Source of the DNA: Opitutales bacterium
GTDB taxonomy: Bacteria; Verrucomicrobiota; Verrucomicrobiia; Opitutales; PNEW01
Length of the DNA stretch: 64,000 bases
Reading direction: 5' to 3'
Assembly: GCA_963692525.1 (NCBI GenBank)
Contig: OY829953.1
Coordinates: 4,420,720 to 4,484,719, forward strand
Position 1 is the first letter of the stretch. Each line of letters begins with the position of its first letter. Positions 11,539 to 56,999 of this stretch are shown here, in pieces. A program made the position numbers and the translations under genes. Under the pieces are notes generated by a model. The model was not told where the DNA came from. It made no database searches and saw nothing but the letters and a program-made list of their open reading frames with translations.

Positions 11539-11790
11539 ATTGAATAATGATGGGAGAAGACGCTCTGAGAAAAAGTAATGGAGGGCCACGCTCCGTCGTG
11601 GCCGTTAATTTTAAAATTAACCCTACATATCTTATTATAGGAATATAGAAAAAGGTTATATTAAAGAAATAAAGGGACGAAGACGAAGCTGTTTCGATAG
11701 TAGGTCACTCATCTTCTCATTCACGCATATCCCTTTTGACTTTTTGACTATTATCATGTGATTTTAGGTTTTAGAGATGGGAGATAAATT

Positions 11791-13569
11791 TTGAAAATTG
11801 CGAGTTTTGTACGGGATGGAGAAATCGATTGTGGGCTGGTCGACGGTGATCAGGGTTACCGGGTTTTTGACAATCACCCTGTAATCGGCAGCTTAAACTC
11901 CGAAAGCAGAATCTTCCACCTCCTCGGTCTATCGCCTGAAGAGAGAGATCGAGTCGATGAGGAGATGAAGGGTGCACCACTGATTTCTAGCAGTGAAATC
12001 AAACTGCTTCCCGCCATTCCTCACTGTCCGCTTTATATTTATAATCATGCGAATAATCCAACTGTATGGAAGCGGCAGATAAACAGAGAGTGGGAAGTCA
12101 CGCGATTGCCCTATATGCGGATCAGATCCTACAATTGCTTCAGCGGTGATGGGTGGGAAATTCCGATACACCCCGGGACAACGCTGTCTTGTGGGGCCGA
12201 GCTGGGTGTCGTGATCGGCCGTGAAGCCTACCGGGTTCCCCCCGAAAAAGCCGTGGAGCATATCGCCGGCCTCGTCTGTCTGAACGACAACTTCATCGAA
12301 GGTGATCACGAAGCATTCATCGACAACTCATCACCTGAGTCGGAGATGCACCAACACCAGGGTCTGCACGTTCTTTTTAAAACCGGTGATGGTAACGGCG
12401 GAATGGGACCCTGGATAACAACCGCTGAAGAATTTGAAAAGGTCATTGAAAACCGTTTACAACAGCAAGCATCTGATCGTTATCGGAATGTCCATGCCGC
12501 ATCCTGGATCTATGACAAAATGATGTGGACAAAAATAAACGGAGAAATCTGTGACGAGGCTTATACCGGCACCTATCTCTTCGGTGCGGAGTGGATGATT
12601 ACCTACCTCTCTCGATTTATGACCTTGCCCACAGGATCTATTATCGGCCTGGGAGCAGCGGGTTGGGACGGCGTGCACTTGCCCAGCATGGATGAACCGG
12701 GAGCAGCGTTTGAGGTGGCGGTCGAGTTACAGGGTGTAGGTGCATCCCGCACGACGGTCAGAAGACAAGCTGTCGATGAAGCAAGTGAGAGTCCCTTTAT
12801 TAAAAACATTACCGCTGCCGGTCTCAATCCTTCAAAGGCTATAATAAAACGCCCGTGCCGTGCGCTCTGGGTTCAACGCGGAAACAATCCCGAATCGGAT
12901 CCGGGTCTCCCCGTGACCGGTTTAAATCCTATTCTCTTTCCCACGACCGCATTGAAAGAAGATGCCAGCCCTATTATCCTTCCCCCTCACGCCACAAGTA
13001 TTCATCTTTCCGTCCAGGTTGCCGGAATTGTCGGCCCCGGAACACTCTATGGGCTCGGCAGTGACGGGCGGAAAATTAATGAAGAGGAATGTATTGAAAG
13101 GATCTCTCTTTTCGTGTCGGTAAGAGATACCTCGCTCATAGATGCGATAAAAGATCCATTCCCCTATGAAATGCGTGCAGCATATTTTTTCAGTTCTTGT
13201 GCTGACGGATTTTTCAGGCTCGGCGATCCCCTCCCCTATAAAGATATTGTGGACCTTTCAGCACAGACTATAAAGATGTCACTCCCTGGAATTGGGGAAC
13301 GCAATTGCAGCATAGCTGATTACCGTTTCGGGTTTTCAGAGATGCTCGCGATGATCAGCCGGACGATCACCCTATTTCCCGGTGATGTTGTCTCCCTCGG
13401 AGCGGCGGGCGCAGAAATTGTAATTCCGTCAGACTCGAAGATAGAAAAAGTGGAGAACAACGACGATAATGGAGAAGGCATTTTATCAGTCGACTCTTCC
13501 TGGGGCGCAACGATGCGTTTGACATTTGACGATCAGAGAGATTCCCGGTTTTTGGAAGTAAGGAGATAG
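11791..13569 (+). CDS. Fumarylacetoacetate hydrolase (FAH) family protein, apparently two tandem FAH-like domains
   Basis: 592 aa with a TTG start. MKIASFVRDGE.. is a typical FAH-family N-terminus. Blocks GAELGVVIGREA..LNDNF (domain 1) and ILFPTTAL..VQVAGIVGPG (domain 2). Confidence 0.7.
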   Translation: MKIASFVRDGEIDCGLVDGDQGYRVFDNHPVIGSLNSESRIFHLLGLSPEERDRVDEEMKGAPLISSSEIKLLPAIPHCPLYIYNHANNPTVWKRQINREWEVTRLPYMRIRSYNCFSGDGWEIPIHPGTTLSCGAELGVVIGREAYRVPPEKAVEHIAGLVCLNDNFIEGDHEAFIDNSSPESEMHQHQGLHVLFKTGDGNGGMGPWITTAEEFEKVIENRLQQQASDRYRNVHAASWIYDKMMWTKINGEICDEAYTGTYLFGAEWMITYLSRFMTLPTGSIIGLGAAGWDGVHLPSMDEPGAAFEVAVELQGVGASRTTVRRQAVDEASESPFIKNITAAGLNPSKAIIKRPCRALWVQRGNNPESDPGLPVTGLNPILFPTTALKEDASPIILPPHATSIHLSVQVAGIVGPGTLYGLGSDGRKINEEECIERISLFVSVRDTSLIDAIKDPFPYEMRAAYFFSSCADGFFRLGDPLPYKDIVDLSAQTIKMSLPGIGERNCSIADYRFGFSEMLAMISRTITLFPGDVVSLGAAGAEIVIPSDSKIEKVENNDDNGEGILSVDSSWGATMRLTFDDQRDSRFLEVRR

Positions 13570-13576
13570 GAGATTA

Positions 13577-13712
13577 GTCAAAACGTCAAAAGGTCAAAAA
13601 GTTGAAGACGATTAGAGTATAAATGCGATCTTAGAATGGGATTAATCTTTCTTTAAATGACGTATCAGAGCAGCATCTACCTTTTGACTTTTTGACCTTT
13701 TGACGTTTTGAC
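13577..13712. terminator. Perfect 26-bp inverted repeat of TTTTGAC words between convergent genes (candidate bidirectional terminator or processing stem)
   Basis: 'gtcaaaacgtcaaaaggtcaaaaagt' (13577-13602) is the exact reverse complement of 13687-13712. The loop is 84 nt. Confidence 0.75.
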
Positions 13713-13720
13713 CCATTGCA

Positions 13721-16700
13721 TTACCGCGCTCCGCCTTCCAAGCGTATGCGTGGGTCCAGCCACATGAGCAGGAGATCACTGACGAGGGTACCCATTACGC
13801 CCAACAGACTCAAAACCATGAGCATGGATCCCGCGAGATAAGTGTCTTCCATCATCAGCGCTTCCAACATCAACGGTCCCACGGTGGGTAAACTGAGTAC
13901 CATCGCGACAATCGCCCCGCCGGAAACGAGATGCGGGAAGAGCGCACCTATACCCGAGATAAAAGGATTAATCGCGATACGTACCGGGTATTTAATCAGC
14001 AATTTGAATGGACGCACGCCCTTGGCCATCGCGGTCGTGACATAGGGCTTTCGCAGCTCGTCGAGTAGATTACCGCGCATCACACGGACCATACCTGCAG
14101 TACCGGCAACGCCCAAAACCACAATCGGCACCCAGATATGTTGTAAAAGATCGATTATTTTTCCGACAGTCCATTCCGGCTGACCGGCGTGTTCAGGTGA
14201 AAAGAGCCCGGTCATACTGATACCGAAATAGACTTTGCTCCAGTACATGATTAGCAGCGCGAGGAGAAAGCTGGGTACGCACATTCCAATGAAGCCGAGG
14301 AAAGTGAAAAAGTAATCGGCAATTGAATACTGGCGCATGGCCGAATAAATGCCAATAGGCAGAGCAACTGCCCAGGTAAAAAGGACCGAACCCAACGCGA
14401 TAAGGACCGTGAGCAGTATACGATCACCAATCACATCGTTGACCGGTCTCCGGCTCTCCATGGAATAACCCAGGTGGCCTTGGAGTAATCCGCGATCCTC
14501 TGATCTATAGGATAAAAACCAGGGCAGACCTAACCAATCCATGTACTGGTTTAAAATAGGTTCATCGAGAGGAAATAACTCACGCAGCTGCTCGGCTTCA
14601 ATAATGTGCTGTTGCTCACCCGATATTTCCACCTCTAAAATCTTAATATCAATATAATTGCTTGGGGGAAGTTGAATGATCGTAAAGGTAACAATAGACA
14701 TGAAAAGGAGGGTGGGCAGCATAATTAATAAGCGTCGTCCAACATAAGGATGTCTCAGCCCGGCAAGGATAAGTCCCAATGTAAATATACCCAGGAAGAG
14801 ATGGCGAACAAACCTGCCAAACGGAATTTCATTACGGCGTTCAAGTGAATCCCTGATCGGGACATTACCTCGCGGTGTGATTTTAATTATTTCTTTTTTT
14901 ATTTGTGCAATTGTTCCGAGTGAATCTTTCGGGTTTTCGAAATAGAAAGTTTCCGGGCCGCCATGAGAGGGTGCCCACCAACCCCCGTATAAAAGTTTAC
15001 GTGGCACGTTTTTGAAATCATTCTTCACAATAGCAAGCTTGGGAAACGCTGTAGAGATGCCAATTACCCAGCGTTCATCAGCCATGATATCCTGGATTTC
15101 CCGAATAATCTTCCTCTGCTCTTGAAGGGTGAGGGCCTGGTGCGAAGCATCAAACAATTCCATCGTTCGCCGCACCGGGTGGCCTGGAGGCGGCTCGATC
15201 CTGCCTACTTTCTTCGCCTCGGGGTTACCGTAAAGCCCACCATCATTATACCATGCGTAATAGCCAAGCGCTTGGGCCGAACTGCCGAGGAAACCATCAC
15301 CTTTAAGCAGTGGATTGTTAGATCCCGTCCCACCCCAGATAAGAAAATCAGATTTTCGCGCAAGGTGAATTACCGTTCTGAGATTGACCGACATTTGACG
15401 CTCGATGGCATGGATGCCAACTTTTTTCCAATCCTCGACGATAAAGGAGAGCGTGCCTTCAGCAAAGTTAGGGATTATATCGAGATTCCAAATCATCCGC
15501 CTACCATCAGCAAAAGTACGATACCCTTCAGCATCACGCCCCGTTAATCCGATATCATCCAATATCCGGTTGGCTCGTTTGGGATCGTACTCGGTATAAC
15601 CTTTTTGCAATTCTTCATGATAAAAATAAGATTTTCTAACGGGCGCGTCTTGCGCCGGTTCTCCCCATCCATCATAGATCGCATCAATGATGTCCCACCT
15701 GTTTATCGCCAGCGAAAGCGCTTTGCGGAACCGCTTGTCATTAAGCAATTCCCATTTATTTTTTGTTCTTGGATCCTCGGGATCGATGTAACGATTCAGA
15801 TTGGGATAAAGCGCATAACTGGATACCTCATTACCGTACCAGTGGTAGACTTCATAATCATTTTCTTCACGCTGCGACATGAGGAGGGTGTAATATCTTT
15901 GGTAAATATTCATCGCCTGCATCGTTATACCTCCTTCTGCGGCGGTGATCGGAACCAATGCCGCGTTTTTAACATCGAGTAAAATACGGTCGACATAGGG
16001 AAGTTGATTACCCTCTGGATCGACCGCCCAGTAGTAGGGATTGCGTACGTATGATCTTGGAGGATTTGCTTTATTCGTGCGATAAAGCCATGGCCAGAGT
16101 CGGGGATGTTGAACGTTGTCAAAGAGCTGAAGCTCCGCATAGAGCCCACGTCGCGTGGAAATATCTCTCGCCTTCATCTCGACTTCAATCAGTTCATCAT
16201 CGCCGAATTCAGGGTGATATTTTTCCAGGTAATGGCGGGGGACACAGAACCCGTAATCACCCGTCAATCGCTCCAGAAACAACACGTGTGGAACGGGGAA
16301 GACAAATTTAACCGTATGGCTGTCTATTTTTATGATTTCACCCGTGTGACCGGCAATCTTCATCGCTGCGCTTATTGCCTTTAGTGACATTTTCGATTCA
16401 AAAATCCATTGGTAGAGAATGTCATCCGCGGTGAAAGGGTGGCCATCAGACCATTTCATCCCCTTGCGAAGGTAAACTGTCCACTCTTTGCGGTCAGGTG
16501 ATACTTTCCAACCCTTAGCGATGTGGGGCACAATCGGATAACCGAGAGGAGACCAGCGCACCAGGGGCGACCCCCCATACCGGTTTCCAATTAAATCTTT
16601 AAGATAATGTGGACTGTTTAAAACACCTAACCAGGTGCCACCGTAATTACCGATGCCGTCTACTCCTTCGATCACAACCGGTTCAGGTCCAACCCGTTCA

Positions 16701-16999
16701 GCCACCGGTGGCAACTTTCCCTCTTTGACTAATTCCGCGATGATAGGTGACTCGCCTTTTGGGTACCACCGCGCTGACTCGCCTTCAGTGTAATCGACAT
16801 CGACCTGAATAGTGTATTCATCTTCCGGACCCAAACGATTATCGCGAACCGATTTCGTTTCCTCAATAATCTCCGGCGCGTATTGAAGGGGTTCTTCCAG
16901 CAAATCCGTTTTTAAAACACGACTCCAAAGGTAGATGAATCCATAAAAAAAACATCCCGCAAGAACGAGAAACCCGAGATGTTTGAAAACTATTTTCAT
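13721..16999 (-). CDS. Fusion protein: family-5 (Opp/Dpp-type) ABC substrate-binding domain + OppB/DppB-like permease domain
   Basis: N-terminal TM anchor, an SBP-like region of about 680 aa, an extra TM, then a permease domain (YVGRRLLIMLPTLLFMS.., YVTTAMAKGVRPFKLLIKYPVRIAINPFISG). I chose the ATG at 16999, because the 15 codons upstream are translated repeat words. Confidence 0.8.
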   Translation of the reverse strand: MKIVFKHLGFLVLAGCFFYGFIYLWSRVLKTDLLEEPLQYAPEIIEETKSVRDNRLGPEDEYTIQVDVDYTEGESARWYPKGESPIIAELVKEGKLPPVAERVGPEPVVIEGVDGIGNYGGTWLGVLNSPHYLKDLIGNRYGGSPLVRWSPLGYPIVPHIAKGWKVSPDRKEWTVYLRKGMKWSDGHPFTADDILYQWIFESKMSLKAISAAMKIAGHTGEIIKIDSHTVKFVFPVPHVLFLERLTGDYGFCVPRHYLEKYHPEFGDDELIEVEMKARDISTRRGLYAELQLFDNVQHPRLWPWLYRTNKANPPRSYVRNPYYWAVDPEGNQLPYVDRILLDVKNAALVPITAAEGGITMQAMNIYQRYYTLLMSQREENDYEVYHWYGNEVSSYALYPNLNRYIDPEDPRTKNKWELLNDKRFRKALSLAINRWDIIDAIYDGWGEPAQDAPVRKSYFYHEELQKGYTEYDPKRANRILDDIGLTGRDAEGYRTFADGRRMIWNLDIIPNFAEGTLSFIVEDWKKVGIHAIERQMSVNLRTVIHLARKSDFLIWGGTGSNNPLLKGDGFLGSSAQALGYYAWYNDGGLYGNPEAKKVGRIEPPPGHPVRRTMELFDASHQALTLQEQRKIIREIQDIMADERWVIGISTAFPKLAIVKNDFKNVPRKLLYGGWWAPSHGGPETFYFENPKDSLGTIAQIKKEIIKITPRGNVPIRDSLERRNEIPFGRFVRHLFLGIFTLGLILAGLRHPYVGRRLLIMLPTLLFMSIVTFTIIQLPPSNYIDIKILEVEISGEQQHIIEAEQLRELFPLDEPILNQYMDWLGLPWFLSYRSEDRGLLQGHLGYSMESRRPVNDVIGDRILLTVLIALGSVLFTWAVALPIGIYSAMRQYSIADYFFTFLGFIGMCVPSFLLALLIMYWSKVYFGISMTGLFSPEHAGQPEWTVGKIIDLLQHIWVPIVVLGVAGTAGMVRVMRGNLLDELRKPYVTTAMAKGVRPFKLLIKYPVRIAINPFISGIGALFPHLVSGGAIVAMVLSLPTVGPLMLEALMMEDTYLAGSMLMVLSLLGVMGTLVSDLLLMWLDPRIRLEGGAR

Positions 17000-17000
17000 T

Positions 17001-17418
17001 GTGCTTAGCCATAAAAAGTTAGCCACAAGAGACATGAGAGGCACAAGATTAAATTATTTCAGTAGAGCGGTCCAACATCTTTCATTCCAGAGGCAGTCAT
17101 TGTGATTACGAATACTAGTCTTTGCACTAGAACATGGGTAACTTAATATATAGTGAAGACAGGCAAACGTCTACTGAACGAAGTTTTACATCCCGGGACT
17201 GTGGTTACGCAACAGACATTCCCCTGGAGTGGAAGATGTCGCTGCGCTCGGTAGCTTCGTTGTTTCACTCCTCGCAATGACAATAGTGGGGCGGGCTGCC
17301 TGGCTCTCCGACTTGAAAGATGTCGTTCCGCTATTGCGGAACTCGGAACTGGTCCTCAGGCCTTCCGGCCATTTGGCTTTCTCGCCATCTGGATGTCAGG
17401 CCTTCCGGCTTTCTATTC
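17001..17418. repeat. Composite of repeat modules
   Basis: 'tagccacaagag..aggcacaag' words (17001-17048); a half 'caatccagg/gcaatgac' arm with an inserted 'ggaagatgtcgctgcgctcggtagc' (17212-17285); a hairpin module (17312-17352); 'ccttccggctttc' words (17353-17418). Confidence 0.7.
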
Positions 17419-21324: not shown

Positions 21325-21328
21325 ATAA

Positions 21329-21357
21329 GTGAACAGTAAACAGTGAACAGTGAATAG
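21329..21357. repeat. 'gtgaacagt' word array, left arm of cassette 1
   Basis: 'gtgaacagtaaacagtgaacagtgaatag' is complementary to 21817-21850. Confidence 0.85.
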
Positions 21358-21816: not shown

Positions 21817-21850
21817 CTTACTGTTCACTGTTTACTGTTTACTGTTCACT
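21817..21850. repeat. 'actgttcac' word array, right arm of cassette 1
   Basis: 'cttactgttcactgtttactgtttactgttcact' has 16-20 bp of perfect complementarity to 21329-21357, depending on register. Confidence 0.85.
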
Positions 21851-25628: not shown

Positions 25629-25661
25629 TCAAACCTTCTTCCTATTTAATTAGATTAGAAA

Positions 25662-25850
25662 GAGATAGCCACAAAATGTAAGGAGTGATAATGCGTGAAT
25701 GCGTATAAGCGATAATGCGGAGAGAATAGTCAAAAAGTTAAAAGGTCAAAATAAATGCTGGAATTGCCAGGATTAACTTTATTCTGTATCATCTATTCTG
25801 AATCCTGCGCATTCACGCATTCACGCATTCACGCATTCACGCACATCCGC
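25662..25850. repeat. Nested palindrome with a 4x tandem 8-mer
   Basis: 'gcattcac' x4 (25808-25843) faces 'aatgcgtgaatgcgtataagcg' (25690-25711). 'gtcaaaaagttaaaaggtcaaaa' lies at 25729-25753 and 'agatagccacaaaatg' at 25664-25680. Confidence 0.75.
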
Positions 25851-26627: not shown

Positions 26628-26798
26628 GTCGAAAGTCGAAAGAGCGCTACCGCGCGTTTTAGGTTTTACGTGTTATGTTTTAAGGAAAGAAAGGATTGAG
26701 ATTGCAGGTTGTATCTTATGTAATATTTATCTCTTCATAGATCAGCGTTTGTCAACACGCGGTCGCAAACACAGTGGAACAATCATAGAGGTTGAGTT

Positions 26799-27887: not shown

Positions 27888-28080
27888 AGACCGGAGGGCC
27901 GGAAAGCCAGAAAACCGGATATCCAGTTCCGAGTTCCGCCGTCGCGGAACGACATCTTCCAAGCCAGCGTTCCGGAAAGCCGGAAGACCAGACAGCCTGA
28001 TAGCCAGAAAGCAGTGATTAGTAAATTATCTAGTGTTAGAGCTCCTGCCTTTTGACCTTTTGACTTTTTGACATTTTGAC
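27886..28080. repeat. Composite: 'ccggaaagcc' words - hairpin module - 'ccggaaagcc' words - TTTTGAC array
   Basis: Hairpin module at 27923-27965 (stem gttccgc/gcggaac). Flanking purine-rich words at 27886-27919 and 27966-28012. 'ccttttgaccttttgactttttgacattttgac' at 28047-28080. Confidence 0.75.
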
Positions 28081-28166: not shown

Positions 28167-29231
28167 ATGACGGCTGTAAGGACAGAACCGGTGACGGATT
28201 CCAGTGCGTGGAGGAAAAACGATCTCATAAGAGATAGATCCTGGGAACATACCTTGTCGGACGATCATAGAGCTGATCTCGATAGCGCGCTGCAAAGCGT
28301 AAAAAGACTTGAATTGCAGTTGGCTGAGATCACACCAAATAATTTTCCTCTCCCTTCGCTTGAAAGTACGCTCACAAAGATTCAAGACGAATTGAAAACA
28401 GGACGTGGTTTTGCATTAATGCACGGGTTCCCGGTAAATGATTATAACTTGGAAGATCAGGTAATGCTCTATTGGGGGCTCTGCACTCATCTCGGTATCG
28501 GTGTCACGCAGAACAGCCAGGGAGACCTCGTCCAATACGTCACCGATGGACGCCTGCAGCCACAACAAGGCGCTCGTAGAGTTGGTAGTCCCAGAGCGGC
28601 ATCGCTTCACAACGATTTGACGGATTGTGTTTCTCTGCTCTCTGTCCGTCAGCCCCCCGATAGTCCACTCAGTTACGCTGCCAGTTCTACGACTCTGTAT
28701 AATGAAATACTGCGACAACACCCAGAATACCTGCCTCAATTGTTTAATGGTTTTATATGGGATCGACAGGATGAAGAAGGAGATGGGGAAACACCTACAT
28801 CAAACTATGCCGTCCCGTTGTTTAGCGAGGAGGATGGAATACTATCGTGTCGATACAATCGGGCTTGGATTCGAAAGGGATTCGAACGACGAGGTCTGGA
28901 ATTTACCCCCGAAGAGACTGAAGTCCTGGACTTCATCGATCAATTGACATATGAAAATCGATTTGAATTTGAATTTCCGGCGGGTGATATTCAATTTTGT
29001 AACAACTACTTCGTAATGCATGGTCGGGCCGCCCATGAACCGGTTGAAGACGAATCACTCAAGCGACTATTGCTGCGCATCTGGATGGATATACCGAATG
29101 TTCGCCCTTTCACCGATGAGTCCGTCATCCGTTATGGTGTCGTGCGTCACGGTCAATTAGGGTGGACCGCTGCTGACTTGCTCTCAGGTCGCCATCATCA
29201 TCCCCGTCAGCGACGGAGCGCCGCTGATTGA
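28167..29231 (+). CDS. TauD/TfdA-family Fe(II)/2-oxoglutarate dioxygenase
   Basis: 354 aa with an HND motif (SLHNDLTD) and a distal His (FVMHGRAAH). Confidence 0.7.
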   Translation: MTAVRTEPVTDSSAWRKNDLIRDRSWEHTLSDDHRADLDSALQSVKRLELQLAEITPNNFPLPSLESTLTKIQDELKTGRGFALMHGFPVNDYNLEDQVMLYWGLCTHLGIGVTQNSQGDLVQYVTDGRLQPQQGARRVGSPRAASLHNDLTDCVSLLSVRQPPDSPLSYAASSTTLYNEILRQHPEYLPQLFNGFIWDRQDEEGDGETPTSNYAVPLFSEEDGILSCRYNRAWIRKGFERRGLEFTPEETEVLDFIDQLTYENRFEFEFPAGDIQFCNNYFVMHGRAAHEPVEDESLKRLLLRIWMDIPNVRPFTDESVIRYGVVRHGQLGWTAADLLSGRHHHPRQRRSAAD

Positions 29232-35974: not shown

Positions 35975-36099
35975 ATTTCCCCCATAATTCTGTGATGTGA
36001 CTTAAGTAGTTCTCGACGAGATAACTTTTATTTAATTGTCAAATGAACATATTTCAAGCGTTTAAGTATAATTGAATTAAATCCAAACGTGTTACTCTT

Positions 36100-36270
36100 A
36101 AGACCAGCGTTCCGGTTCCGAGTTCCACAATCGCGGAATGACGTCTTCCAAATCGAAAAACTGAATTGATAGAGGATGCAAATTTCACTTCGAAACCCGT
36201 TAGGCACAATCTGCAATCCAATATCCGCAATCAGCAATTGTCTGGCTTTTTGACTTTTTGACCTTTTGAC
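36100..36270. repeat. Composite of repeat modules
   Basis: Hairpin module at 36112-36154. 'caatctgcaatccaatatccgcaatcagcaattg' at 36207-36240. 'ggctttttgactttttgaccttttgac' at 36244-36270. Confidence 0.7.
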
Positions 36271-36286
36271 TCTATCCAATCGGATA

Positions 36287-38464: not shown

Positions 38465-38790
38465 CTTATTCGTTTTCGTGTTTTGTCACTATTGTCATTG
38501 CGAGGAGTGAAACGACGAAGCAATCCAGGCGAATAGTCATTTAACTTACGAATACCAGTCGCTGCTCAGATTTTCCAATGTGGGTTCGATGAACAAATTA
38601 TTGTATATTGAAAATCGGCATTCGTACTCCAGAGTGTAGCTTTACATGCAAGGATTGTGATAATGCAACTGACATCCCCCTGGATTGCCGCGGTCAGCTG
38701 ATAGCCTCCCTCGCAATGACAAGTGAGCATCATGTATCAATCCGGTCTTCCGGTTTTCCTTCTTTCTGACCTTCTGGAATTCCGGCTTTC
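38465..38790. repeat. 232-bp 'gtcattgcgag / caatccagg' element (Y arm + ... X arm -) flanked by word arrays
   Basis: Arms at 38491-38540 and 38671-38722. The rc of 38671-38722 matches 10151-10203 at 51 of 53 nt. 'ccggtcttccggttttcc..ccggctttc' words at 38731-38790. Confidence 0.8.
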
Positions 38791-40130: not shown

Positions 40131-40415
40131 GAAGGTGTCGGGTTTCAGGTGTCGGTGAAGCGGGTTCCCATCGACTACGCTCAGTGTAGACAGGTTTCAG
40201 AGTTTAGCCGGAGTACCGGTTCCGAGTTCCGCCTTTGCGGAACGACATCTTCCAAACCAGACAACCGGAAAGTCGGAAGGCCGAGGTACGAGATAGGCAA
40301 CTTGTCCTAAGCCCAGTACCTGGAAACTATCTTCACTTAAAACCTAACACCTAAAACTTAACACGCGCGTAGCGCTCCCCTCCTTTTGACTTTTTGACAT
40401 TTTGACATTTTGACC
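40131..40415. repeat. Composite of at least five module types
   Basis: 'gaaggtgtcgggtttcaggtgtcgg' (rc copy at 45879-45907). 'gggttcccatcgactacgctcag' follows. Hairpin module at 40213-40258. 'cttaaaacctaacacctaaaacttaacac' follows. TTTTGAC array at 40382-40415. Confidence 0.75.
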
Positions 40416-40420
40416 AAATC

Positions 40421-41308
40421 TCAAGCTCGATTAACGAGGTAAATTCCGTATGCGACGAAGATTGCGCCAAAGGCAAGATTGATCGTAATTGGTTCATTCA
40501 ATATGAGATAGCTCAACGCCACACCAAAGAGCGGGGTCGCGAAAAAAAACGCAGTTAGTTTTGTCGGGCTGTGTTGTTTTAAGATAAGTGTCCAGCAGAC
40601 GAAGCAAAAACCTCCCACGACAAGCCCTTGATAAACGATTGCCAGCAAAGCAATGGGAGTAAAATGATAACTATCCAATCCTTCGAAGCAAAAACTGAGA
40701 CCAAAAAATATCGGAAGACTTATAGCCATTTGCCAAATGAGCAGTCGATAGATATTTATATGTTGAATGAGAAGTTTTGTGTAGATATTACATATACCGA
40801 GAACAAAAGCACTCGCTAAGACGAAAAGGTCACCAATTAAAAAATCACTCCCTAAAGAAAAATTAGCGCGGAAAACAATAATTACCCCGATAATTGCAAC
40901 CAATAAGCCTAAACACTTTTTCAGATTTAATTCATCACCTTTAAAATAGAAATGAGCCAGCCCAGCAGTAAATAATGGATTTATGTTGATGAGAATAGTG
41001 GTGTGCGAGGCGTAGGTGTAGTGCGTTCCAATATTTATAAGCCCAATCTGTGTAGTGAATAACAACGACATGATAAGAAGCAGAATTCTCTCTGATTTAG
41101 GCGGCATTATCGGAATCCGGTAAATTACTGCCCAAAGAATAATCCCCAGGATTGCCAGTGAAAAACGAAGCCCGCCAACCATAAATGGCGGCATATCGAC
41201 GAGGGAAGTTTTGAGCGCTACCGAATTCCCACCCCAGAGAAATCCGAGAAAAAGCGCTATCGCTATGACCTTTGCACTCGGCTGATCAACCGGTATCGTT
41301 TTTTTCAT
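40421..41308 (-). CDS. EamA/DMT-family transporter
   Basis: 295 aa, about 10 TM segments, AT-rich. Confidence 0.8.
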   Translation of the reverse strand: MKKTIPVDQPSAKVIAIALFLGFLWGGNSVALKTSLVDMPPFMVGGLRFSLAILGIILWAVIYRIPIMPPKSERILLLIMSLLFTTQIGLINIGTHYTYASHTTILININPLFTAGLAHFYFKGDELNLKKCLGLLVAIIGVIIVFRANFSLGSDFLIGDLFVLASAFVLGICNIYTKLLIQHINIYRLLIWQMAISLPIFFGLSFCFEGLDSYHFTPIALLAIVYQGLVVGGFCFVCWTLILKQHSPTKLTAFFFATPLFGVALSYLILNEPITINLAFGAIFVAYGIYLVNRA

Positions 41309-48528: not shown

Positions 48529-48663
48529 AAAGCCGGAGGACCAGAGAACCAGAAGACCGAAAAGCCGTAGGACTAGTGAGAGAGGGTGGAAGATGTCGAG
48601 CTACGCTCTCGGTACGGGGTTCAGAGGATAGTGAACAGTGAACGGTAAACAGTGAACAGTGGG
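48529..48663. repeat. Left flank of cassette 2: 'ccggaggaccag' words, hairpin-type module and 'gtgaacagt' array
   Basis: Module 'gtggaagatgtcgagctacgctctcggtacggggttcagagg' at 48586-48627. Array at 48631-48663. Confidence 0.8.
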
Positions 48664-49123: not shown

Positions 49124-49249
49124 CTTACTGTTCACTGTTTACTGTTCACATCTAACTATCGGCATTTTTCCTGAACCCTGTACCGAGGGCGTAGTCCGAC
49201 ATCTTCCACTCTGAACCCTTTCTCACTGTTCACTGTTTACTGTTCACAG
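49124..49249. repeat. Right flank of cassette 2: 'actgttcac' array, inverted hairpin-type module, second 'actgttcac' array
   Basis: 49127-49149 is complementary to 48631-48663 with 1 mismatch in 23. 49170-49210 is the inverted copy of 48586-48627 (about 37 of 41). A second array lies at 49222-49249. Confidence 0.8.
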
Positions 49250-50285: not shown

Positions 50286-50602
50286 GATTTACGATTGTCG
50301 TTTGATTCTATTTGTCATCGCGAGGCTGCTTGTCAGCCGTGGCGATCCAGGGGAATATCGGACGCATATTGTTAGCCCCCTGGATTGCCGCAGTCGGCTT
50401 CGCCTCCTTCGCAATGACAAGAGAGAATGCAGGATACATGTTGTAAGATTCAAGATTATCCCTAGCGGTTGCCACTTTTTTTTATGACCACATACTCGCA
50501 TTTCCGCATTCACGCTTGTCCGCTTTTTCGCATTTCCCTTTTTGACATTTTGACCTTTCTTGCCGGCCATAGCCTTGGCGACGGCTGGTGACTTTTTGAC
50601 CC
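50286..50602. repeat. Composite: word arrays + 111-bp 'gtcatcgcgag / caatccagg' hairpin element + TTTTGAC arrays
   Basis: The element at 50311-50421 is the uninterrupted version of 11405-11538. 'ggccatagccttggcgacggctgg' at 50565-50588. TTTTGAC words at 50538-50556 and 50590-50602. Confidence 0.8.
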
Positions 50603-50603
50603 G

Positions 50604-51404
50604 CTACGCACAGCGACAGGTGAGTCCGCCATCGACGACGAGTTGGGTGCCGGTAACATATCTTGCTTCGTCAGAGGCGAGAAAGAGAGCGGCATAAGCG
50701 ACATCCCAGGCATCACCCATTTTTCCCGTGGGGCAAAGATTATCTCTGATTTCGACCATTTTATCCAAATCACCCCCTGCATAGTACTCACCCAGGGCTT
50801 TAGCTACTAAGGGTGTGTTCATTAAACCGGGAAGGATAGAGTTAGCCCGGATATTTTTCTTCGCGTACTGTATGGCGATACTCTGGGTAAGTTGATTGAT
50901 CGCTCCTTTACTTGCATTGTATGCAACAGAAGCTATTCCGTACCACCGAATTGAGGCGATGGATGATAAGTTTACGATGGCCCCTCCTCCCTGTTTTTCC
51001 ATCAGGGGTAATACGTGTTTACAGGTCAAAAACATACTCTTAACGTTTACATCCATTACGCGATCCCAGCTTTCCTCGCTTGCTTCGACACAACCTCCAA
51101 TTTCATTTATCCCCACATTATTATGCAGGATGTCTATTCTGTCATAAGTCTCAAGGCAGCGCGCGACCATGTCCTCAACCTTATTTGCTTGAGAAACATC
51201 GGCTTTGTGAACAATGCATTCCCCTCCCTCATCTTCGATAAGGCTTTTCGTTTCCTCGGCCGCAGCGAGGTTGATATCAACGGCGAAAACTTTTGCTCCT
51301 TCGCGAGCAAAAAGAACCGCAGTTGCTTTACCATTCCCCCAACCGGGCCCACCGGATCCCGCACCCGTAACGAGGGCTACTTTGTCTTTCAATCGATCAC
51401 TCAT
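50604..51404 (-). CDS. Short-chain dehydrogenase/reductase (SDR)
   Basis: VTGAGSGGPGWGNGKA, NNVG and YNASKGA motifs. Confidence 0.9.
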   Translation of the reverse strand: MSDRLKDKVALVTGAGSGGPGWGNGKATAVLFAREGAKVFAVDINLAAAEETKSLIEDEGGECIVHKADVSQANKVEDMVARCLETYDRIDILHNNVGINEIGGCVEASEESWDRVMDVNVKSMFLTCKHVLPLMEKQGGGAIVNLSSIASIRWYGIASVAYNASKGAINQLTQSIAIQYAKKNIRANSILPGLMNTPLVAKALGEYYAGGDLDKMVEIRDNLCPTGKMGDAWDVAYAALFLASDEARYVTGTQLVVDGGLTCRCA

Positions 51405-51433: not shown

Positions 51434-52288
51434 TCACCTTTGCCGACGACGGATAATAGCCGCGGCATTATTATAATAAATGTCCTGAATCTCTTTTTTG
51501 GAAAATCCACGGTATTCTGTTCGCAGCATTTCCACCGTCTGCTTCATGGTGTTAAATGGCAGGACTGGGGCGGCGTCCGAGGCGAACAACAAACGCTTGG
51601 GCGTAAAATGATCACGCAAAAAATCCACCGCGGGAAACATATCGTCCTGAGGGTACTTCCACCCTTTCGCAGATAAAGCATAAAAGCCGGATAATTTAAC
51701 AAACACATTGGGGTAATTTTTCAGTTCCTTCATGACTAGAAAAGCTTTGTTCAATTTTCCGTTTTTAACGACTGGGAAGACCATGTGAGCGAGCAACAAG
51801 ATACAATTTGGGTAACGATCCAGCGCTTTCAGCAGGAAGGGCAAATTTGTGTGATTCATGTTTATACTAACCGGCACCTCTTGCTCCTCCACCAGGGCCC
51901 AGAAGTCATTCATTTTACGCTCGGCCATCCAACGGGGGCTTTTGGTGAGCCAAACGGCGTCCCTGGAATCCGGGTATAACGTCAAGCCGAAAAATTTCTT
52001 CTTTAAAAGCCGCTCCGCATCCCTCGCCATCGTGGATGGGTTGGACTTCAGATATCCAAAGGGAAGGATCCACTTGCGACGTTTGGAAAGATTTAAGACG
52101 TATTCGTTATTCCTGGAGTTCGGGCGATATTCGTAGCATATGACGAATGCATGAGAAATATCGTGAGTGCGGCGAAAATTTTCATACTGGGTCACCTCAC
52201 CTTCCGGACCGTTCTTGATATGGTCGGCATTGAAAGCCAAGGCAAAAGGACGATCGAATAAATGAATGTGGGTATCAATAATGGGCAT
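51434..52288 (-). CDS. Amidohydrolase-2 family TIM-barrel hydrolase
   Basis: MPIIDTHIHLFD N-terminus; 284 aa. Confidence 0.8.
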   Translation of the reverse strand: MPIIDTHIHLFDRPFALAFNADHIKNGPEGEVTQYENFRRTHDISHAFVICYEYRPNSRNNEYVLNLSKRRKWILPFGYLKSNPSTMARDAERLLKKKFFGLTLYPDSRDAVWLTKSPRWMAERKMNDFWALVEEQEVPVSINMNHTNLPFLLKALDRYPNCILLLAHMVFPVVKNGKLNKAFLVMKELKNYPNVFVKLSGFYALSAKGWKYPQDDMFPAVDFLRDHFTPKRLLFASDAAPVLPFNTMKQTVEMLRTEYRGFSKKEIQDIYYNNAAAIIRRRQR

Positions 52289-52305
52289 AGATTACTTTTT
52301 TTAAG

Positions 52306-52676
52306 AGTCAAAAAGGGAGATGCGATTATGAGTGTAAGCGAAAATGCGGTAATGCGGTAATTTGGAAAGAATAAACCGCGAATAGACACCGATATATATA
52401 AGAATAAGATTTAGGAAATTAGAACTCAGGAATTCAGGAAATGAGTGGAGAATATTATAGAGTAGAATATGATTGAACAGCAGAGACGCTGAGATCGAAG
52501 AGAATACAACAAGGGTTATTTTATATGAAACACGATACTATTAATTTTTTAAATAATTATTTTACTCTCTAATTATTTGTGCTCATTGGTGTTCATTCGT
52601 GGTTTTTTACTTGTATTCCTGAGTTCTTAAGTTCCAAATTTTCACTCATTTGTTTTTTGTGCCTTTTGTGGCTATA
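52306..52676. repeat. Composite element (copy a of the 'ggaaagaataaaccgcgg' family) plus paired word arrays
   Basis: 52364-52520 is homologous to 56724-56890. 'agaactcaggaattcaggaaa' (52421-52441) faces 'attcctgagttcttaagttcc' (52615-52635). 'actctctaattatttgtgctcattggtgttcattcgtggt' matches 23799-23870. Confidence 0.75.
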
Positions 52677-52740
52677 TCTTCTATACACCGCGAACTCCGT
52701 GTCTTCATGTAGAAATCTTTGTCGTTCTTTTCTTTTGACT

Positions 52741-55536
52741 CTACTCAAAACGGACTTCCTTAAGCTTGGGAGAACCGCATCCGTAAAGGGAAATGAAAGT
52801 CGCTTTGTACTGCAACCATCGGGACCTACTCGGGATGTTTGCTATGGATTCACCGGAAGTTTCATAATATGACTCCTCACCCTCGGGACCCATCCATGTG
52901 GCATCATCCAGTCCCGCTTGTGTTTCACTTTCTCTTAACTGGAATTTAATTCTCAAAAGATCGGTTTCTTCACTTATCCATTTAATGGCATTCACCTTTT
53001 CTTTGCCCAGTTCATATGGTGGTGAAATATAATTTTCTTCAGGTTTCCGCGTAAAAGCATTGCCGTGATCACGCTTGTACATCCCATGTGGTCCCAAACC
53101 AGGAATGCCAGTTCTCCTCGTAATGGAAAATCCATCCGGGCTATTCCAGTATATTAAAGAATCTAACTTGTGCGTGATATCATTTCGGTGATTACCCAAG
53201 ACAATATCCGCCCAGCCATCGCGGTTTAAATCGAGCTGCATGATGGCATTGGCTCCGTAAGTATGAAGCCGATCTGGATTTTCAAAATCCAGTTTCGTCC
53301 CATCACCATGAAAAATCAGGGTGGGATATGACCGATGGACGGCATTGACACTGTCGCTGTAATAAACGGTGGCCGCGATATCCAGGTTCCCATCCTTATT
53401 AAAATCAGCAACGCCAATCGCCTTTGTCGTATACCCGGCTTCGAGTTGCTGTGTATTTTCTGGAAGGTAACCCTGGGGACTGCCATAAAAGACTTCCATC
53501 GTATCGCGAAAACGCATTCGTGTCGGGAATTTTGAAACCACAATATCCAACCAGCCGTCTTTATTCAGATCTGCCAGGTAAGGCATGGCCGAATCATAGA
53601 TCGTATCGCAGGGAACTTTCCAAATATGATCTTCAGAGTATCCGTCATCACCTCCGAGGAAAATTAATAGATAATTCCATTTATCATGAAAAAGGATATC
53701 GAGATGACCGTCATTGTTTACATCTCCAAGGGTGGAGTAATTTCCATAATTATCCAGCCGTTTAATATTATTTTCTGAAAAACCGTCCTTCGAACCATAA
53801 AAAATAGTCGATGGTTTATGATCTTTCTTCATAATCATTTCACCCCTTTCAACGGCCAGTAGATCGAGATACCCGTCACGATTGAAATCAGCTACATCGA
53901 GATCAAAGTTGGGCGGATTGGCGGTGGGCAGAATTGAGAATTGACCCGGTATCGGTCCCTCCGGCGTTCCCTCGTAGATCTGAACACCCTTTTTCGCGGT
54001 AAAAATCGTCTCCGGATATCCATCGAGATTCAAATCACTGACAATCGCGACAACCCCGTGATCGGTCTGGAGCTCAAGACGATTTTCCGGTCCGTACTTT
54101 GCCTCTTTATTACCATAATAGATATAAGAGGGCGTTGATGCCACCGGTCCACTCATGTGATTATGGAAAATTACTTCACTTTGACCATCGCCATTCAGAT
54201 CCCCGACCGTATTGCCTATCGCCCCTTCAGTGGAAATCCAACTGACGTTCTTTTCAGAGAAACCTGAGTGACTATTCCAGAATATGGGTGATTCAGATTC
54301 ATACATCACTTCACCGTGGAACTTGCTGACAACGAGTTCCGGTAGCTTATCACCATTGAGGTCAGAGACTGTAATCCATCTTGCATTTTCTACAGCGAGA
54401 GTGGTTTTCACGGTAAGCAAATCGTCAACCGAGTGTATCTCTACACCATTATCGGTGGCCATAATCATATCCTTTACCTTATCACCATCAACATCAGCAA
54501 AAGTGATGTGTAATTGGCTTTTTGATCTACCCTCTTCTCCAGCTTTCCTCATTACTTCTATGATTAAGGGTTCGTCTGAATTGAACTTTCCATTTTCGTT
54601 CCAATAGATACACGCGTGCCCCCGACAGCTGAAGATGATATCTTTATCACCATCTCCATTGAGGTCTTCCAGGACAACCTGTCGCACCCCACTGGTGGGT
54701 AAATAATGGGGTGTCTTTGTATCGAATCCTTCCGCTGTACCCCAGTAAAGGACCGAATCTATACTTGTATCATATTCGCGTCTTAAATTGGCCAAAACGA
54801 GATCGCCATAGCCGTCATCATTCAAGTCAGCGATATCAACCGAGGTTGCCGCCATCCCCCACAAGTCATAGTACTCAGTGGCGAATTCAAATTGACGATC
54901 TTCCTGTTGAAGATAAACCTGAGCCAACAATGGCATACCGGGGTTGTGCGGGTCTTTCCACGCGGAGGGATAGACAACATCTAACCGCCCATCACGGTTG
55001 ATATCGTAAACCGCGAAATCATAAGCGCCAATCGTTGGCAGGTCAGAGCGGTTGACCCCCAGTCCGTTCGGTCCACCCCAGTAAATGTATGATGGCACTT
55101 CACAAGTAACTTCATTATAGGAATTGGCGGTAACGAGATCCATGTATCCATCTTCATCCAGATCGATAATCCGGCTCATCCATAAACAGTAACTGCCGAC
55201 AAACATTTGCTCACGTTTCCACTGATCCGAGGGTCCCTCATCGACGGTAAATACATGGGTGGGGCCCCACTCTGTTTTTCCATGCGCATTTGCCAGGATG
55301 ATATCCGCATAGCCATCGTTGTTGACATCGAAATTATTGATCATCTCGATGATCCCGTTCGCATTCACGTAAAGGTTGGCTCCCCCATTTTCAAACCAGC
55401 CCTGGGAAAAATCTTCAAAACCTCCATGCACCCATGCCTTTTTGGCGATCAAAGAGAGTGGGAAGACAAAAACGAAGAGTGTTAATAGAAATATATGCGA
55501 TAGGTAACAAGTTTTTATTTCCATTTTATAACCCAT
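52741..55536 (-). CDS. FG-GAP/VCBS-repeat protein (about 14 repeats, consistent with two 7-bladed propellers)
   Basis: 931 aa with a signal-like N-terminus and 14 Ca-binding-type motifs of the form D(V/L/F/I)N.DG..D(I/L/V). Confidence 0.8.
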   Translation of the reverse strand: MGYKMEIKTCYLSHIFLLTLFVFVFPLSLIAKKAWVHGGFEDFSQGWFENGGANLYVNANGIIEMINNFDVNNDGYADIILANAHGKTEWGPTHVFTVDEGPSDQWKREQMFVGSYCLWMSRIIDLDEDGYMDLVTANSYNEVTCEVPSYIYWGGPNGLGVNRSDLPTIGAYDFAVYDINRDGRLDVVYPSAWKDPHNPGMPLLAQVYLQQEDRQFEFATEYYDLWGMAATSVDIADLNDDGYGDLVLANLRREYDTSIDSVLYWGTAEGFDTKTPHYLPTSGVRQVVLEDLNGDGDKDIIFSCRGHACIYWNENGKFNSDEPLIIEVMRKAGEEGRSKSQLHITFADVDGDKVKDMIMATDNGVEIHSVDDLLTVKTTLAVENARWITVSDLNGDKLPELVVSKFHGEVMYESESPIFWNSHSGFSEKNVSWISTEGAIGNTVGDLNGDGQSEVIFHNHMSGPVASTPSYIYYGNKEAKYGPENRLELQTDHGVVAIVSDLNLDGYPETIFTAKKGVQIYEGTPEGPIPGQFSILPTANPPNFDLDVADFNRDGYLDLLAVERGEMIMKKDHKPSTIFYGSKDGFSENNIKRLDNYGNYSTLGDVNNDGHLDILFHDKWNYLLIFLGGDDGYSEDHIWKVPCDTIYDSAMPYLADLNKDGWLDIVVSKFPTRMRFRDTMEVFYGSPQGYLPENTQQLEAGYTTKAIGVADFNKDGNLDIAATVYYSDSVNAVHRSYPTLIFHGDGTKLDFENPDRLHTYGANAIMQLDLNRDGWADIVLGNHRNDITHKLDSLIYWNSPDGFSITRRTGIPGLGPHGMYKRDHGNAFTRKPEENYISPPYELGKEKVNAIKWISEETDLLRIKFQLRESETQAGLDDATWMGPEGEESYYETSGESIANIPSRSRWLQYKATFISLYGCGSPKLKEVRFE

Positions 55537-55587
55537 GATTGATGCGTATGATAGCTATACATTCATATGAAGAATAGTCACAAGAAA

Positions 55588-55680
55588 CACTTCCGAGTCC
55601 CGCAGCTGCGGGACGACTTCTTCCAAAGACGCATAAAGATTAAGGGGAAAGGATTGCCAATTAAATTTCAATGACAATAT
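55588..55680. repeat. Hairpin module plus a degenerate 'ggattgcc..caatgacaat' arm
   Basis: 'cacttccgagtcccgcagctgcgggacgacttcttccaaag' at 55588-55628 (stem gtcccgc/gcgggac). Confidence 0.6.
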
Positions 55681-55782
55681 AGAGTTAAAGAGGGATGAAC
55701 TTTACAAATCAAATAAATAAGATATTCTCCACGATCAAGGAAATGATCGTCTTGAATATAAAACTCTAAGAATCGTACTAAA

Positions 55783-56574
55783 ATGACTCCAGAAGAAAGA
55801 TATTTATTTGATTTGAAAGGGTACCTTGTTATTCGGCAAGCGCTGCCAGAAGATCTGGTAAAAAGTTTAAATGAAGAGATCGATTTCATGGAAACACTTA
55901 CCACAGAGGAAGTGACGGCAAGAGGAGTAATTCGACAGTACAATAACAAGAATGAAAATTACGATGTATCGCGACATAATTACAGCTGTAACCCTTTACC
56001 CATGGGCGGGTCTTTTGAGAAGCTGATCGACTGTCCGAGTACACTTCCCTACATCCGTGCCATGATCAACGAACCTGTTCGGCTCGATGCCTATTCATTT
56101 TTTTCAAGAAAACAGGGACAATGCAGCCCATTACATCATGGCTACGCAGAGCTTTTGGCCTATAGTGAATTTGCCATCGAAAACGGACAGTTTAAATGTG
56201 TCAGTGTGAAAGTGGCCTATGCTTTAACGGATGTCTCCGAAGAAAAAGGCTCATTCGTGGTTATACCGGGAAGCCATAAGAGTAATTTTGATAATCCGTT
56301 TAGCGGTAGCGTCCCCGATGAGAATCACCCATTAATTGAAACCTGTCCCTGTAAAGCAGGGGATGCCGTACTTTTTTCGGAAGACCTTACTCATGGAGCG
56401 TTGATTAACCAGAGCAATAACACACGCCGGACATTTTTTATATCTTATGCCCCGGCTTTTCAAACACCATGGGGTAAATTAGTAGATACCGCGGAAGGAT
56501 TTGAAGAGAGAGCTACTCCCGGGCAATTGGAATTAATTAAGAGTCCTTCGCCTTTTGCAATCGCAGAAAGTTGA
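55783..56574 (+). CDS. Phytanoyl-CoA dioxygenase (PhyH) family oxygenase
   Basis: 263 aa with ERYLFDLKGYLVIRQAL, VIPGSHKSN and LTHGA blocks. Confidence 0.8.
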   Translation: MTPEERYLFDLKGYLVIRQALPEDLVKSLNEEIDFMETLTTEEVTARGVIRQYNNKNENYDVSRHNYSCNPLPMGGSFEKLIDCPSTLPYIRAMINEPVRLDAYSFFSRKQGQCSPLHHGYAELLAYSEFAIENGQFKCVSVKVAYALTDVSEEKGSFVVIPGSHKSNFDNPFSGSVPDENHPLIETCPCKAGDAVLFSEDLTHGALINQSNNTRRTFFISYAPAFQTPWGKLVDTAEGFEERATPGQLELIKSPSPFAIAES

Positions 56575-56599
56575 CACTTGATTGATTTTTATCCCGTCA

Positions 56600-56999
56600 C
56601 CTCCAACGGAGGGTAAAATGACAATGCGATTGTGCGTAAAAGCGTACCGAGGGCAAAGTCCGCCTGTCGTCCATAGCCTCGTGCGACGGTTGGGCATCCT
56701 CAAATGCTTGTATACGGTAATGTGGAAAGAATAAACCGCGGATGGACGCGGATTAATACGGATATAATATAAGAATAAGATTTAGAAATTTAGAACTCAG
56801 GAAATCAGGAAAAAAGAAGATAATATTACAAGTAGAATATAATTGAACCGCAAAGCCGCTGAGATCGCTTCGCTCGGGAAGGGGTTATTTCCTCATTCGA
56901 CTTTCGACCTTTGACTTTAGACTCCTCTAAAACAAAATCCGCGCATATCCGCGTAATCCGCGGTTATTGATTCTTTATTTCCTGAGTTCATGAGTTCCA
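56600..56999. repeat. Composite element (copy b of the 'ggaaagaataaaccgcgg' family), itself a nested palindrome
   Basis: 'aataaaccgcggatggacgcggatt' (56730-56754) faces 'aatccgcgcatatccgcgtaatccgcggttatt' (56936-56968). 'agaactcaggaaatcaggaaa' faces 'tttcctgagttcatgagttcc' (56977-56997). Confidence 0.75.

Follow-up and report, generated by a model that had tools for sequence, protein, structure and literature searches.

What fixes the strand on which a short tandem repeat is read when it lies between bacterial genes? The question is raised by a 64-kb window (the whole stretch of DNA analysed, G000:C1:4420720-4484719) of the closed 4.49-Mb genome (45% G+C; labelled G000) of a marine Opitutales bacterium, whose spacers harbour tandem arrays of the octamer (N)TTTTGAC. 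An initial annotation of the window had listed ten sites reading TTTTGAC in the sense of a gene ahead of its start codon and GTCAAAA behind its stop codon. It had taken this polarity to follow the direction of transcription, and had likened genes bracketed by complementary arrays to rRNA processing stalks. At all ten sites the coordinates, the orientation and the neighbouring gene ends are as reported (Table 1). In general the sites are indeed arrays, except that 52306-52316 is a single unit, while 26628-26645 and 56896-56920 represent 7-mer variants of the GTCGAAA type. CTTTTGAC occurs ten times in the window compared to 2.55 expected copies, a number reached in none of 100 shuffles. Tandem Repeats Finder (TRF) yields 79 short-period rows, nearly all of period 7-8 and nearly all located between genes. 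At gathering score, Rfam gives no match to a structured RNA family within the 64 kb.

The orientation of the arrays is set by the spacer, not by the direction of the gene. On the plus strand, left-hand arrays of a spacer read GTCAAAA and right-hand ones TTTTGAC. In other words, the strand running 5' to 3' away from any gene end reads GTCAAAA. Since the orientation as originally formulated flips between start and stop, its four cases collapse into this single one, which is invariant to gene direction. We defined an array as at least two TTTGAC cores spaced 8 nt apart and called genes in G000 by a combined open reading frame (ORF) and dicodon (coding-potential) score, obtaining 3508 genes at 83% coding density whose ends within the window match those of the initial annotation. 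The genome-wide census, which that annotation had itself proposed, comprises 186 arrays, 174 of them intergenic. The rule is obeyed by 164 of these 174 (p = 5e-37) and by 176 of all 186, so that the polarity as such holds far beyond the window instead of dissolving into an even split. It is equally pronounced in ++, --, convergent and divergent spacers and thus blind both to gene direction and to start versus stop; the assumption that it tracks transcription is not borne out.

Ninety-six of the intergenic arrays lie at starts and 78 at stops, corresponding to about 3.5% and 3.3% of those gene boundaries. Obedience is complete for intergenic arrays within 30 nt of a gene end (134/134), while beyond 120 nt, where the "nearest gene" becomes ambiguous, it amounts to 6/11; all ten exceptions are found 50-183 nt from the nearest called gene. 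Pseudo-replication by paralogy does not account for these numbers, as there are few such clusters and, after collapsing paralogous gene ends, 136 of 145 loci still obey. In 400 kb of a congener (G001) 30 of 30 arrays conform, and in a genome of a sister genus (G003) 14 of 14. A search of 151 Opitutales genomes reveals arrays of three units in all four genomes of one family and, save for one unrelated locus, in no other family. For non-coding bacterial DNA it is unusual that a rule holds at 134 of 134 gene ends, across three genomes and a large number of unrelated words (see below).

Gene calling might itself mimic such a rule. Read towards the gene, TTTTGAC arrays of three or more units contain TGA in all three frames and would block ORFs, whereas GTCAAAA arrays are open, so that an ORF could in principle swallow wrongly oriented arrays. 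Yet only 12 of the 186 arrays are genic, all of them at the extreme termini of ORFs and all conforming to the rule: eleven occupy the final 4-49 nt with GTCAAA in sense, and one is located 48 nt past the called start with TTTGAC in sense. Taken together with the p value given above and with the equal validity of the rule after stops, before starts and in word families devoid of stop-codon asymmetry, this leaves an origin by chance or annotation with practically no probability, and we consider it effectively refuted.

Eleven ORFs traverse a GTCAAAA array and stop just beyond it (e.g. at 1194129-1194158, 1999245-1999274, 3740396-3740425 and 4342187-4342216 of G000). Hence, their predicted C-terminal residues form a repeat-encoded, Lys-rich tail. 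For gene annotation, the orientation of an array predicts the side where the nearest real gene end is to be found, and arrays may help to place start codons 6-10 nt downstream and flag ORFs with array-encoded tails.

Given that start codons follow at 6-10 nt and stop codons precede at 0-5 nt, it is almost certain that the arrays are transcribed as ends of untranslated regions (UTRs). The pattern resembles a UTR code or a signal for mRNA circularisation, yet it is mirror-symmetric about the spacer. It had been suggested that the polarity follows transcription so that UUUUGAC in the 5' UTR pairs with GUCAAAA in the 3' UTR of the same mRNA, comparable to rRNA stalks or to small-gene cassettes enclosed by stems. 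Any gene with arrays on both sides necessarily possesses complementary flanks, as does 11791..13569 with 11731-11748 and 13577-13602, and 20 bracketed genes are observed where a uniform model predicts 3.3. However, control combinations of neighbours at lags 1-5 and 10 give 12-30, a range that includes the observed value, which is explained by the regional clustering of the arrays together with the mirror rule. The bracketing of 11791..13569 is therefore correct as geometry but a by-product of that rule, and since bracketing is no commoner than clustering predicts, it lends no support to pairing of mRNA ends or to the likeness to rRNA stalks. Beyond that, convergent and divergent spacers follow the same rule, three quarters of the array-bearing spacers contain a single arm, and for the 3' array of 11791..13569 a perfect 26-nt partner lies at 78 nt, compared to a two-unit partner at a distance of 1.8 kb. 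We regard pairing of mRNA ends as very improbable.

The arrays are concentrated at 1.8-2.2, 3.9-4.1 and 4.2-4.49 Mb of G000, together with the arrays of all other words (r = 0.68); these regions show slightly higher G+C and lower coding density. This regional confinement, together with the lack of any replication-strand bias of genic GTCAAAA copies (286:273), rules out a polar genome signal of the kind of Chi or the FtsK-orienting polar sequences (KOPS). Origin and terminus were placed at ~0.71 and 3.13 Mb from cumulative GC skew. With respect to these, intergenic arrays carry GTCAAA on the presumed leading strand in 108 cases and on the lagging strand in 66, a mild excess.

TTTTGAC is by no means the only word to behave in this way. 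A 7-mer polarity scan and a TRF census of G000 (968 intergenic arrays with a period of 6-10) uncover about 15 further word families following the same mirror rule; most word families possess a fixed outward-reading strand. Given as outward units with the arrays in majority orientation, they include AACAGTG (53/58), CGTCTT (28/32), GTCGAAA (19/20 by TRF; 63:8 for words within 40 nt of a gene end), CAGGGTT (18/19), AAGTGTT (18/19) and GCGGATT (15/16). Of 121 arrays of these other families that lie no farther than 30 nt from a gene end, 119 show the orientation of their family. The outward strand contains more G than C in 13 of 18 polar families. Stop-codon content was rejected as the cause of polarity, as the 18 families split into 13 ties, four cases one way and one the other.

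The ATAGCCACAA words, too, are consistently polar (61 outward, 3 inward in G000), as had been noticed in the window, although the impression that they flank minus-strand genes only does not hold genome-wide (23 at plus-strand and 41 at minus-strand genes). A 'cacgaa' array at 38465-38487 had been listed as breaking the pattern; it is no exception because CACGAA words lack polarity altogether (132:115). Two pairs of AGTGAAC...ACTGTTC arrays in the window (21328-21354 / 21820-21850 and 48630-48661 / 49127-49149) enclose small ORFs of 143-144 aa. If these ORFs are real, the arrays point inward to them, placing a gene in a foldback loop. The family scores "outward" since the gene caller truncated one of the enclosed ORFs and missed the other.

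The way in which TTTTGAC arrays are combined within spacers is equally restricted. Among 139 array-bearing spacers of G000, 35 (25%) hold a convergent pair (GTCAAA...TTTGAC), and a divergent or same-sense arrangement of two arrays occurs in none. The pairs exceed the clustering background only ~1.7-fold. The second arm lies at a median distance of 86 nt, and the arm periods are 8,8 in 26 pairs, 7,7 in two and mixed in three. In 28 of 34 pairs the arms dominate or pair in the minimum free energy (MFE) fold. Spacer 13570-13720 forms a stem of ~30 bp with z = -6.65 as RNA and -6.5 as DNA. Gene-centred cassettes inserted into a palindromic site are not a viable origin, as the corresponding "empty site" (TTTTGAC followed by GTCAAAA) is found in no case, compared to the 35 convergent pairs, and bracketing is not enriched.

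The mirror rule is independent of gene direction, the arrays closely abut genes, pairing is exclusively convergent and some 15 families behave alike. On balance, although with considerable reserve, we favour the explanation that the TTTTGAC arrays are the most gene-proximal family of lineage-specific tandem intergenic modules which are centred on the spacer and of the same kind as the heptamers of Xanthomonas and Nostoc. In one Opitutales family, modules of about 3-4 units, each of 7-8 nt, would occupy the spacers of particular genome regions, oriented relative to the spacer centre such that both strands read 5'-(GTCAAAAN)n ... (NTTTTGAC)n-3'. They may have originated as the inverted arms of spacer repeats of a foldback type whose chirality is fixed. 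If later modules landed inside earlier ones, the oldest arms would stay against the genes, and subsequent loss or overwriting of partner arms would produce the many single arms. Where both arms are present, the spacer could close into a hairpin of 20-33 bp, either as RNA or as single-stranded DNA. Any regulatory effect would then presumably consist in a local hairpin or insulator effect of the spacer rather than in pairing of mRNA ends.

Several findings weigh against this explanation. Single arms prevail (104 of the 139 spacers, 75%). Relic words on the partner side of single arms are near background (7/89 compared to about 5% in controls), which disposes of decayed partner arms beside them. 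The arms of a pair are not specific for each other, as their complementarity of 18.6 nt hardly differs from the 18.2 nt calculated with arms of other spacers (the observed value is reached in 87 of 300 permutations) and as the variable eighth base shows no co-variation between them; a mirror-copy origin of the pairs was rejected on the grounds of this missing specificity. The interiors of the 35 pairs share no conserved core, so that there is no master copy as for a miniature inverted-repeat transposable element (MITE); the blocks have only modules of 26-45 nt in common with other loci. Genes of Y1 transposases are equally present in array-free relatives (PF01797, Y1_Tnp: six matches in G000, four in G001, one in G003, and matches in 13 of 27 array-free Opitutales genomes searched).

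Unit number and distance to the gene are both narrowly distributed. Four units are present in 81 of the 186 arrays, three in 54, two in 46, five in four and six in one; the mode is thus four, more than five units are rare and there is no geometric decay. The unit, GTCAAAAR or YTTTTGAC, comprises one or two G and no G-tract. Its eighth base alternates between G and A, giving rise to a 16-nt super-unit. The median distance between array and gene is 12 nt. After stops, distances peak at -1 to +5 nt, most commonly -1, 0, 1 and 3 nt, and in the -1 nt cases the first G of the array serves as the last base of the stop codon TAG. Distances to start codons peak sharply at 6-10 nt, and between these arrays and the start codon no Shine-Dalgarno-like sequence is present. 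A reading of TTGAC as promoter -35 element was dismissed, since 6-10 nt separate the arrays from start codons and stops are followed by arrays just as often. In 43% of the arrays (58% at starts, 23% at stops) the outer end has a 'TA' before it.

So exact a placement beside coding ends would also suit an orientation-dependent boundary signal, that is, cis elements under selection at gene ends whose sequence is read on the outgoing strand or RNA, for instance as a polar stop for transcripts leaving a gene on either strand or as targets of a single-strand binding protein with sequence specificity. A single arm would then suffice for function and the word families would represent interchangeable versions of the same signal. 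In line with this, 98 of 104 single arms obey the rule without a partner or partner relic, and the modal number of four units without geometric decay recurs in Xanthomonas and Nostoc. The geometry as a whole is encountered independently in three further phyla. However, one and the same task would fall to at least 15 unrelated words, and the arrays, which are restricted to some genome regions, touch only 17-28% of gene ends even there. The adjacent genes are ordinary metabolic ones without a common theme, and no candidate binding protein was identified. Neither is there any property which all polar words share: stop-codon content does not qualify, nor do YC dimers or a U-tract in the words inspected, and an excess of G over C is limited to the 13 of 18 families mentioned above.

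Comparison of G000 with its congener G001 bears on both explanations. The arrays turn over rapidly by slippage, family replacement, spacer replacement and inversion of inner segments. While genes are 88-98% identical in the compared stretches, spacers are often unalignable and some are replaced over their whole length, as far as the flanking genes. Counted with the strict array definition, the two genomes have 21 arms in common, with 26 present in G000 only and nine in G001 only. Unit numbers in orthologous spacers differ as 4 vs 2, 4 vs 1 and 3 vs 1. In some slots a GTCAAAA array is exchanged for another family (CAGGGTT or AGGTGTT/AAGTTTT), which adopts the canonical polarity of that family; such swaps at orthologous gene ends invariably do so, as expected for interchangeable boundary signals. 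Over a 9-kb stretch comprising seven neighbouring spacers (G000 3980717-3989157 vs G001:C1 ~1245900-1254500), the 8-mer GTCAAAAR makes up every arm in G000 and the 7-mer GTCGAAR or GTCTAAR every arm in G001, both arms of a spacer switching together. This concerted switch, too, would fit the boundary signal, as if the variant were tied to a trans factor. Weighing both sides, we hold a selected boundary signal, the main alternative, to be unlikely, though clearly worth bearing in mind. Gene identity in the 9-kb stretch (about 89-95%) is below that of nearby stretches.

A change of arrangement is also seen at 56896..56920, where a ~115-nt segment (~56810-56930) is reverse-complemented in G001. 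Since this inversion flips both the side and the strand of the array, its polarity is preserved. The segment is flanked by inverted GCGGATT-type arrays, and its inversion looks like recombination between spacer arms.

If a spacer break were resected to the gene ends, a polymerase or reverse transcriptase then added about four templated units to each 3' end and filler rejoined the ends, the polarity would automatically be outward, pairs would be convergent, single arms would occur and each arm would be an independent draw of the same word. Such templated addition would agree with arms that belong to the same family without being mirror copies, with heterogeneous pair interiors, with a unit number narrowly around 3-4, with arrays that reach or overlap stop codons, with word variants that are lineage- and region-wide and with the frequent excess of G over C on the outward strand, as in telomeric repeats. 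On the other hand, many different templates would be needed, in divergent spacers an array placed 6-10 nt before a start would mean that the promoter was lost at the same time, and slippage, which between congeners amounts to a change from one to four units, suffices for the variation in unit number. To our knowledge, no such enzyme is known in bacteria; no search for one was made here. We give templated addition very little credence.

The geometry as such has been described before. Rehm et al. 2015 (PLoS One 10:e0144275, PMC4692102) report GGGAATC heptamers in Xanthomonas campestris/axonopodis and GGGGA(C/T)T heptamers of the short tandemly repeated repetitive (STRR) type in Nostoc PCC 7120. 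The nearest ORF is located "almost exclusively" on the 5' side of the repeat whatever its orientation, and the repeats lie 0-50 bp from ORFs, overlap stop codons and are present on the non-coding strand upstream and on the coding strand downstream (PMC4692102). Each genome holds 70-75 convergent inverted pairs, unit number differs between close species, the neighbouring genes are ordinary metabolic ones and the function is unknown, G-quadruplex formation being offered as a rationale (PMC4692102). Our arrays agree with these repeats in consisting of tandem non-coding units of 7-8 nt with a preference for about four (here 174 of 186 intergenic), in having the gene on the 5' side of a defined strand within 50 bp or overlapping the stop (here 164/174, and 134/134 within 30 nt) and in forming convergent pairs (here 35/139 spacers, with no divergent ones). 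They differ in their unit, which is G-rich in Xanthomonas and Nostoc, whereas the A/T-rich octamer is unable to form a G-quadruplex; hence, the G-quadruplex rationale for four units and for their placement does not transfer. Further differences are the co-existence and nesting of ~15 word families, the regional instead of genome-wide distribution, the absence of any under-representation in divergent spacers and the phylum, Verrucomicrobiota. A literature search on tandem intergenic repeats of Opitutales found no description in the library searched.

MacGregor 2015 (Front Microbiol 6:1397, PMC4679880) describes TAACTGA heptamers of marine Beggiatoaceae, some Cyanobacteria and Bacteroidetes, arranged as 2-6 tandem intergenic units. 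Most sets are "forward" and stop a few nt short of a start codon, where they take the position of a Shine-Dalgarno sequence; Flexibacter litoralis has a reverse-oriented set directly after a stop codon, and strains differ by unit-step indels (PMC4679880). The repeats of 'Maribeggiatoa' are overwhelmingly found at starts, with one inverted set, while in the genome studied here starts and stops are equally represented and 25% of the array-bearing spacers hold convergent pairs. Our observations link repeats that were described separately in four phyla into one phenomenon, and a non-G-quadruplex octamer with the same geometry weakens G-quadruplex formation, the sole published rationale. It is conceivable, although we consider it improbable, that the mirror rule reflects one undiscovered process or machinery common to Opitutales, Xanthomonas GGGAATC, Nostoc STRR and Beggiatoa TAACTGA which writes or requires about four outward units of 7-8 nt at coding ends; this may be either a polar gene-boundary signal or templated repeat addition. 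If it were true, the octamers, not being G-rich, would leave no room for the G-quadruplex explanation and suggest a mechanism of general nature.

Repetitive extragenic palindromic (REP) sequences and their bacterial interspersed mosaic elements (BIME), as well as the REP doublets forming hairpins (REPINs) that go along with REP-associated tyrosine transposases (RAYT/TnpA-REP, Y1) in proteobacteria, are abundant extragenic repeats, and inverted doublets form transcript hairpins, often just behind stop codons. The REP unit is an imperfect palindrome of ~20-40 nt, while the TTTTGAC array is a direct tandem repeat without internal dyad whose hairpins form only between separate arms, with neither a conserved doublet spacing nor a core. 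An association with RAYT is not discriminating, given the Y1_Tnp matches in array-free relatives. With MITEs the arrays share the fixed chirality of two ends, their non-coding nature, the location in spacers and presence or absence between strains. They deviate from MITEs in lacking a conserved interior, in arms that are not matched to each other and in the prevalence of single-armed loci, and, as only 43% are preceded by an outer 'TA', there is no clear target-site duplication. Single 10-12-mers involved in DNA uptake, the DNA uptake sequence (DUS) of Neisseria and the uptake signal sequence (USS) of Haemophilus, are distributed genome-wide and also form convergent inverted pairs that act as terminators downstream of genes. 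The likeness consists in a short word occurring singly and as convergent pairs downstream of genes in a fixed arrangement; in contrast, our arrays are tandem and regionally confined, and the genic copies of their unit show no strand bias.

Table 1. TTTTGAC-type arrays and units in the window, with their situation in G000 and in the congener G001.
Position	Strand	Sequence	Location in G000	Situation in G001
11731..11748	+	CC(CTTTTGAC)(TTTTTGAC), 2 units	right side of spacer 11302-11790; unpaired arm; 42 nt upstream of TTG start at 11791	~190-nt block holding the array absent or replaced
13577..13602	-	(GTCAAAAN)x3 as read on + strand	left arm of convergent spacer 13570-13720; begins 7 nt past stop of FAA-hydrolase-like gene 11791..13569; MFE fold pairs it with 13681-13712	kept, spacer bases changed
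13681..13712	+	(NTTTTGAC)x4	right arm of spacer 13570-13720; ends 8 nt from stop end of minus-strand gene 13721..16999	2 units
25728..25751	-	GTCAAAA-type degenerate array, 3 units	centre of spacer 25629-25850, 99 nt from either gene; ambiguous for the rule; not among the ten sites of the initial annotation	
26628..26645	-	GTCGAAA GTCGAAA, 7-mer variant read outward	beside minus-strand SDR gene; 15 nt beyond start called here (26612; previously 26627)	
28047..28080	+	(NTTTTGAC)x4	86 nt before ATG at 28167, TauD-like gene; unpaired arm	identical; neighbouring CCGGAAAG-type arrays differ
36244..36270	+	(NTTTTGAC)x3	16 nt before ATG at 36287, SDR gene; unpaired arm	retained; sequence immediately inside array replaced
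40382..40415	+	(NTTTTGAC)x4	5 nt from stop end of minus-strand EamA gene 40421..41308	one unit only at same place
50538..50602	+	TTTTGAC array, interrupted by 30-nt insert CTTGCCGGCCATAGCCTTGGCGACGGCTGG at 50559-50588	1 nt from stop end of minus-strand SDR gene 50604..51404	uninterrupted 4-unit arm, exactly without insert; GTCAAAA x4 left arm missing in G000
52306..52316	-	single unit GTCAAAAAG (AGTCAAAAAGG), no array	17 nt beyond start of minus-strand gene 51434..52288; TTTTGAC-type unit at far side beside 52741	two units; TTTTGAC-type unit at far side as in G000
52732..52739	+	single CTTTTGAC unit	abuts stop end of minus-strand gene 52741..55452; right-hand counterpart of 52306-52316	
56896..56920	+	TTCGAC/TTTGAC 7-mer variant array	right half of spacer 56575-57003	array on left half of spacer, reads GTCRAAA

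Further repeats and genes of the window deserve mention. In the G001 orthologue of G000 4016560-4016756, an array contains an insert similar to that at 50559-50588. A non-coding repeat of ~130 nt, TTGTCATCGCGAGGCTG..TGTCAGCCGTGGCGATCCAGGGGAATATCGGACGCATATTGT..CCTCCTTCGCAATGACAAG, occupies two spacers (11405-11540 and 50310-50420), the first site being conserved in G001. A small hairpin module, GGTTCCGAGTTCCGCC..GCGGAACGACATCTTCCAA, is located between CCGGAAAG-type arrays at ~27925-27965, ~36110-36150 and ~40215-40260, with an extra copy in the G001 counterpart of spacer 35924-36286. The minus-strand gene 13721-16999 encodes a 1092-aa fusion of an SBP_bac_5 (family-5 solute-binding) domain and an ABC permease domain. 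Its paralogues are numerous, with 18 DNA matches in G000, and in several of them the stop codon is directly followed by the same array. Two tandem paralogues of ~850 aa each are encoded on the plus strand at 43133-45700 and 45988-48528; G001 and G003 each possess at least six further copies, which share 59-62% identity.

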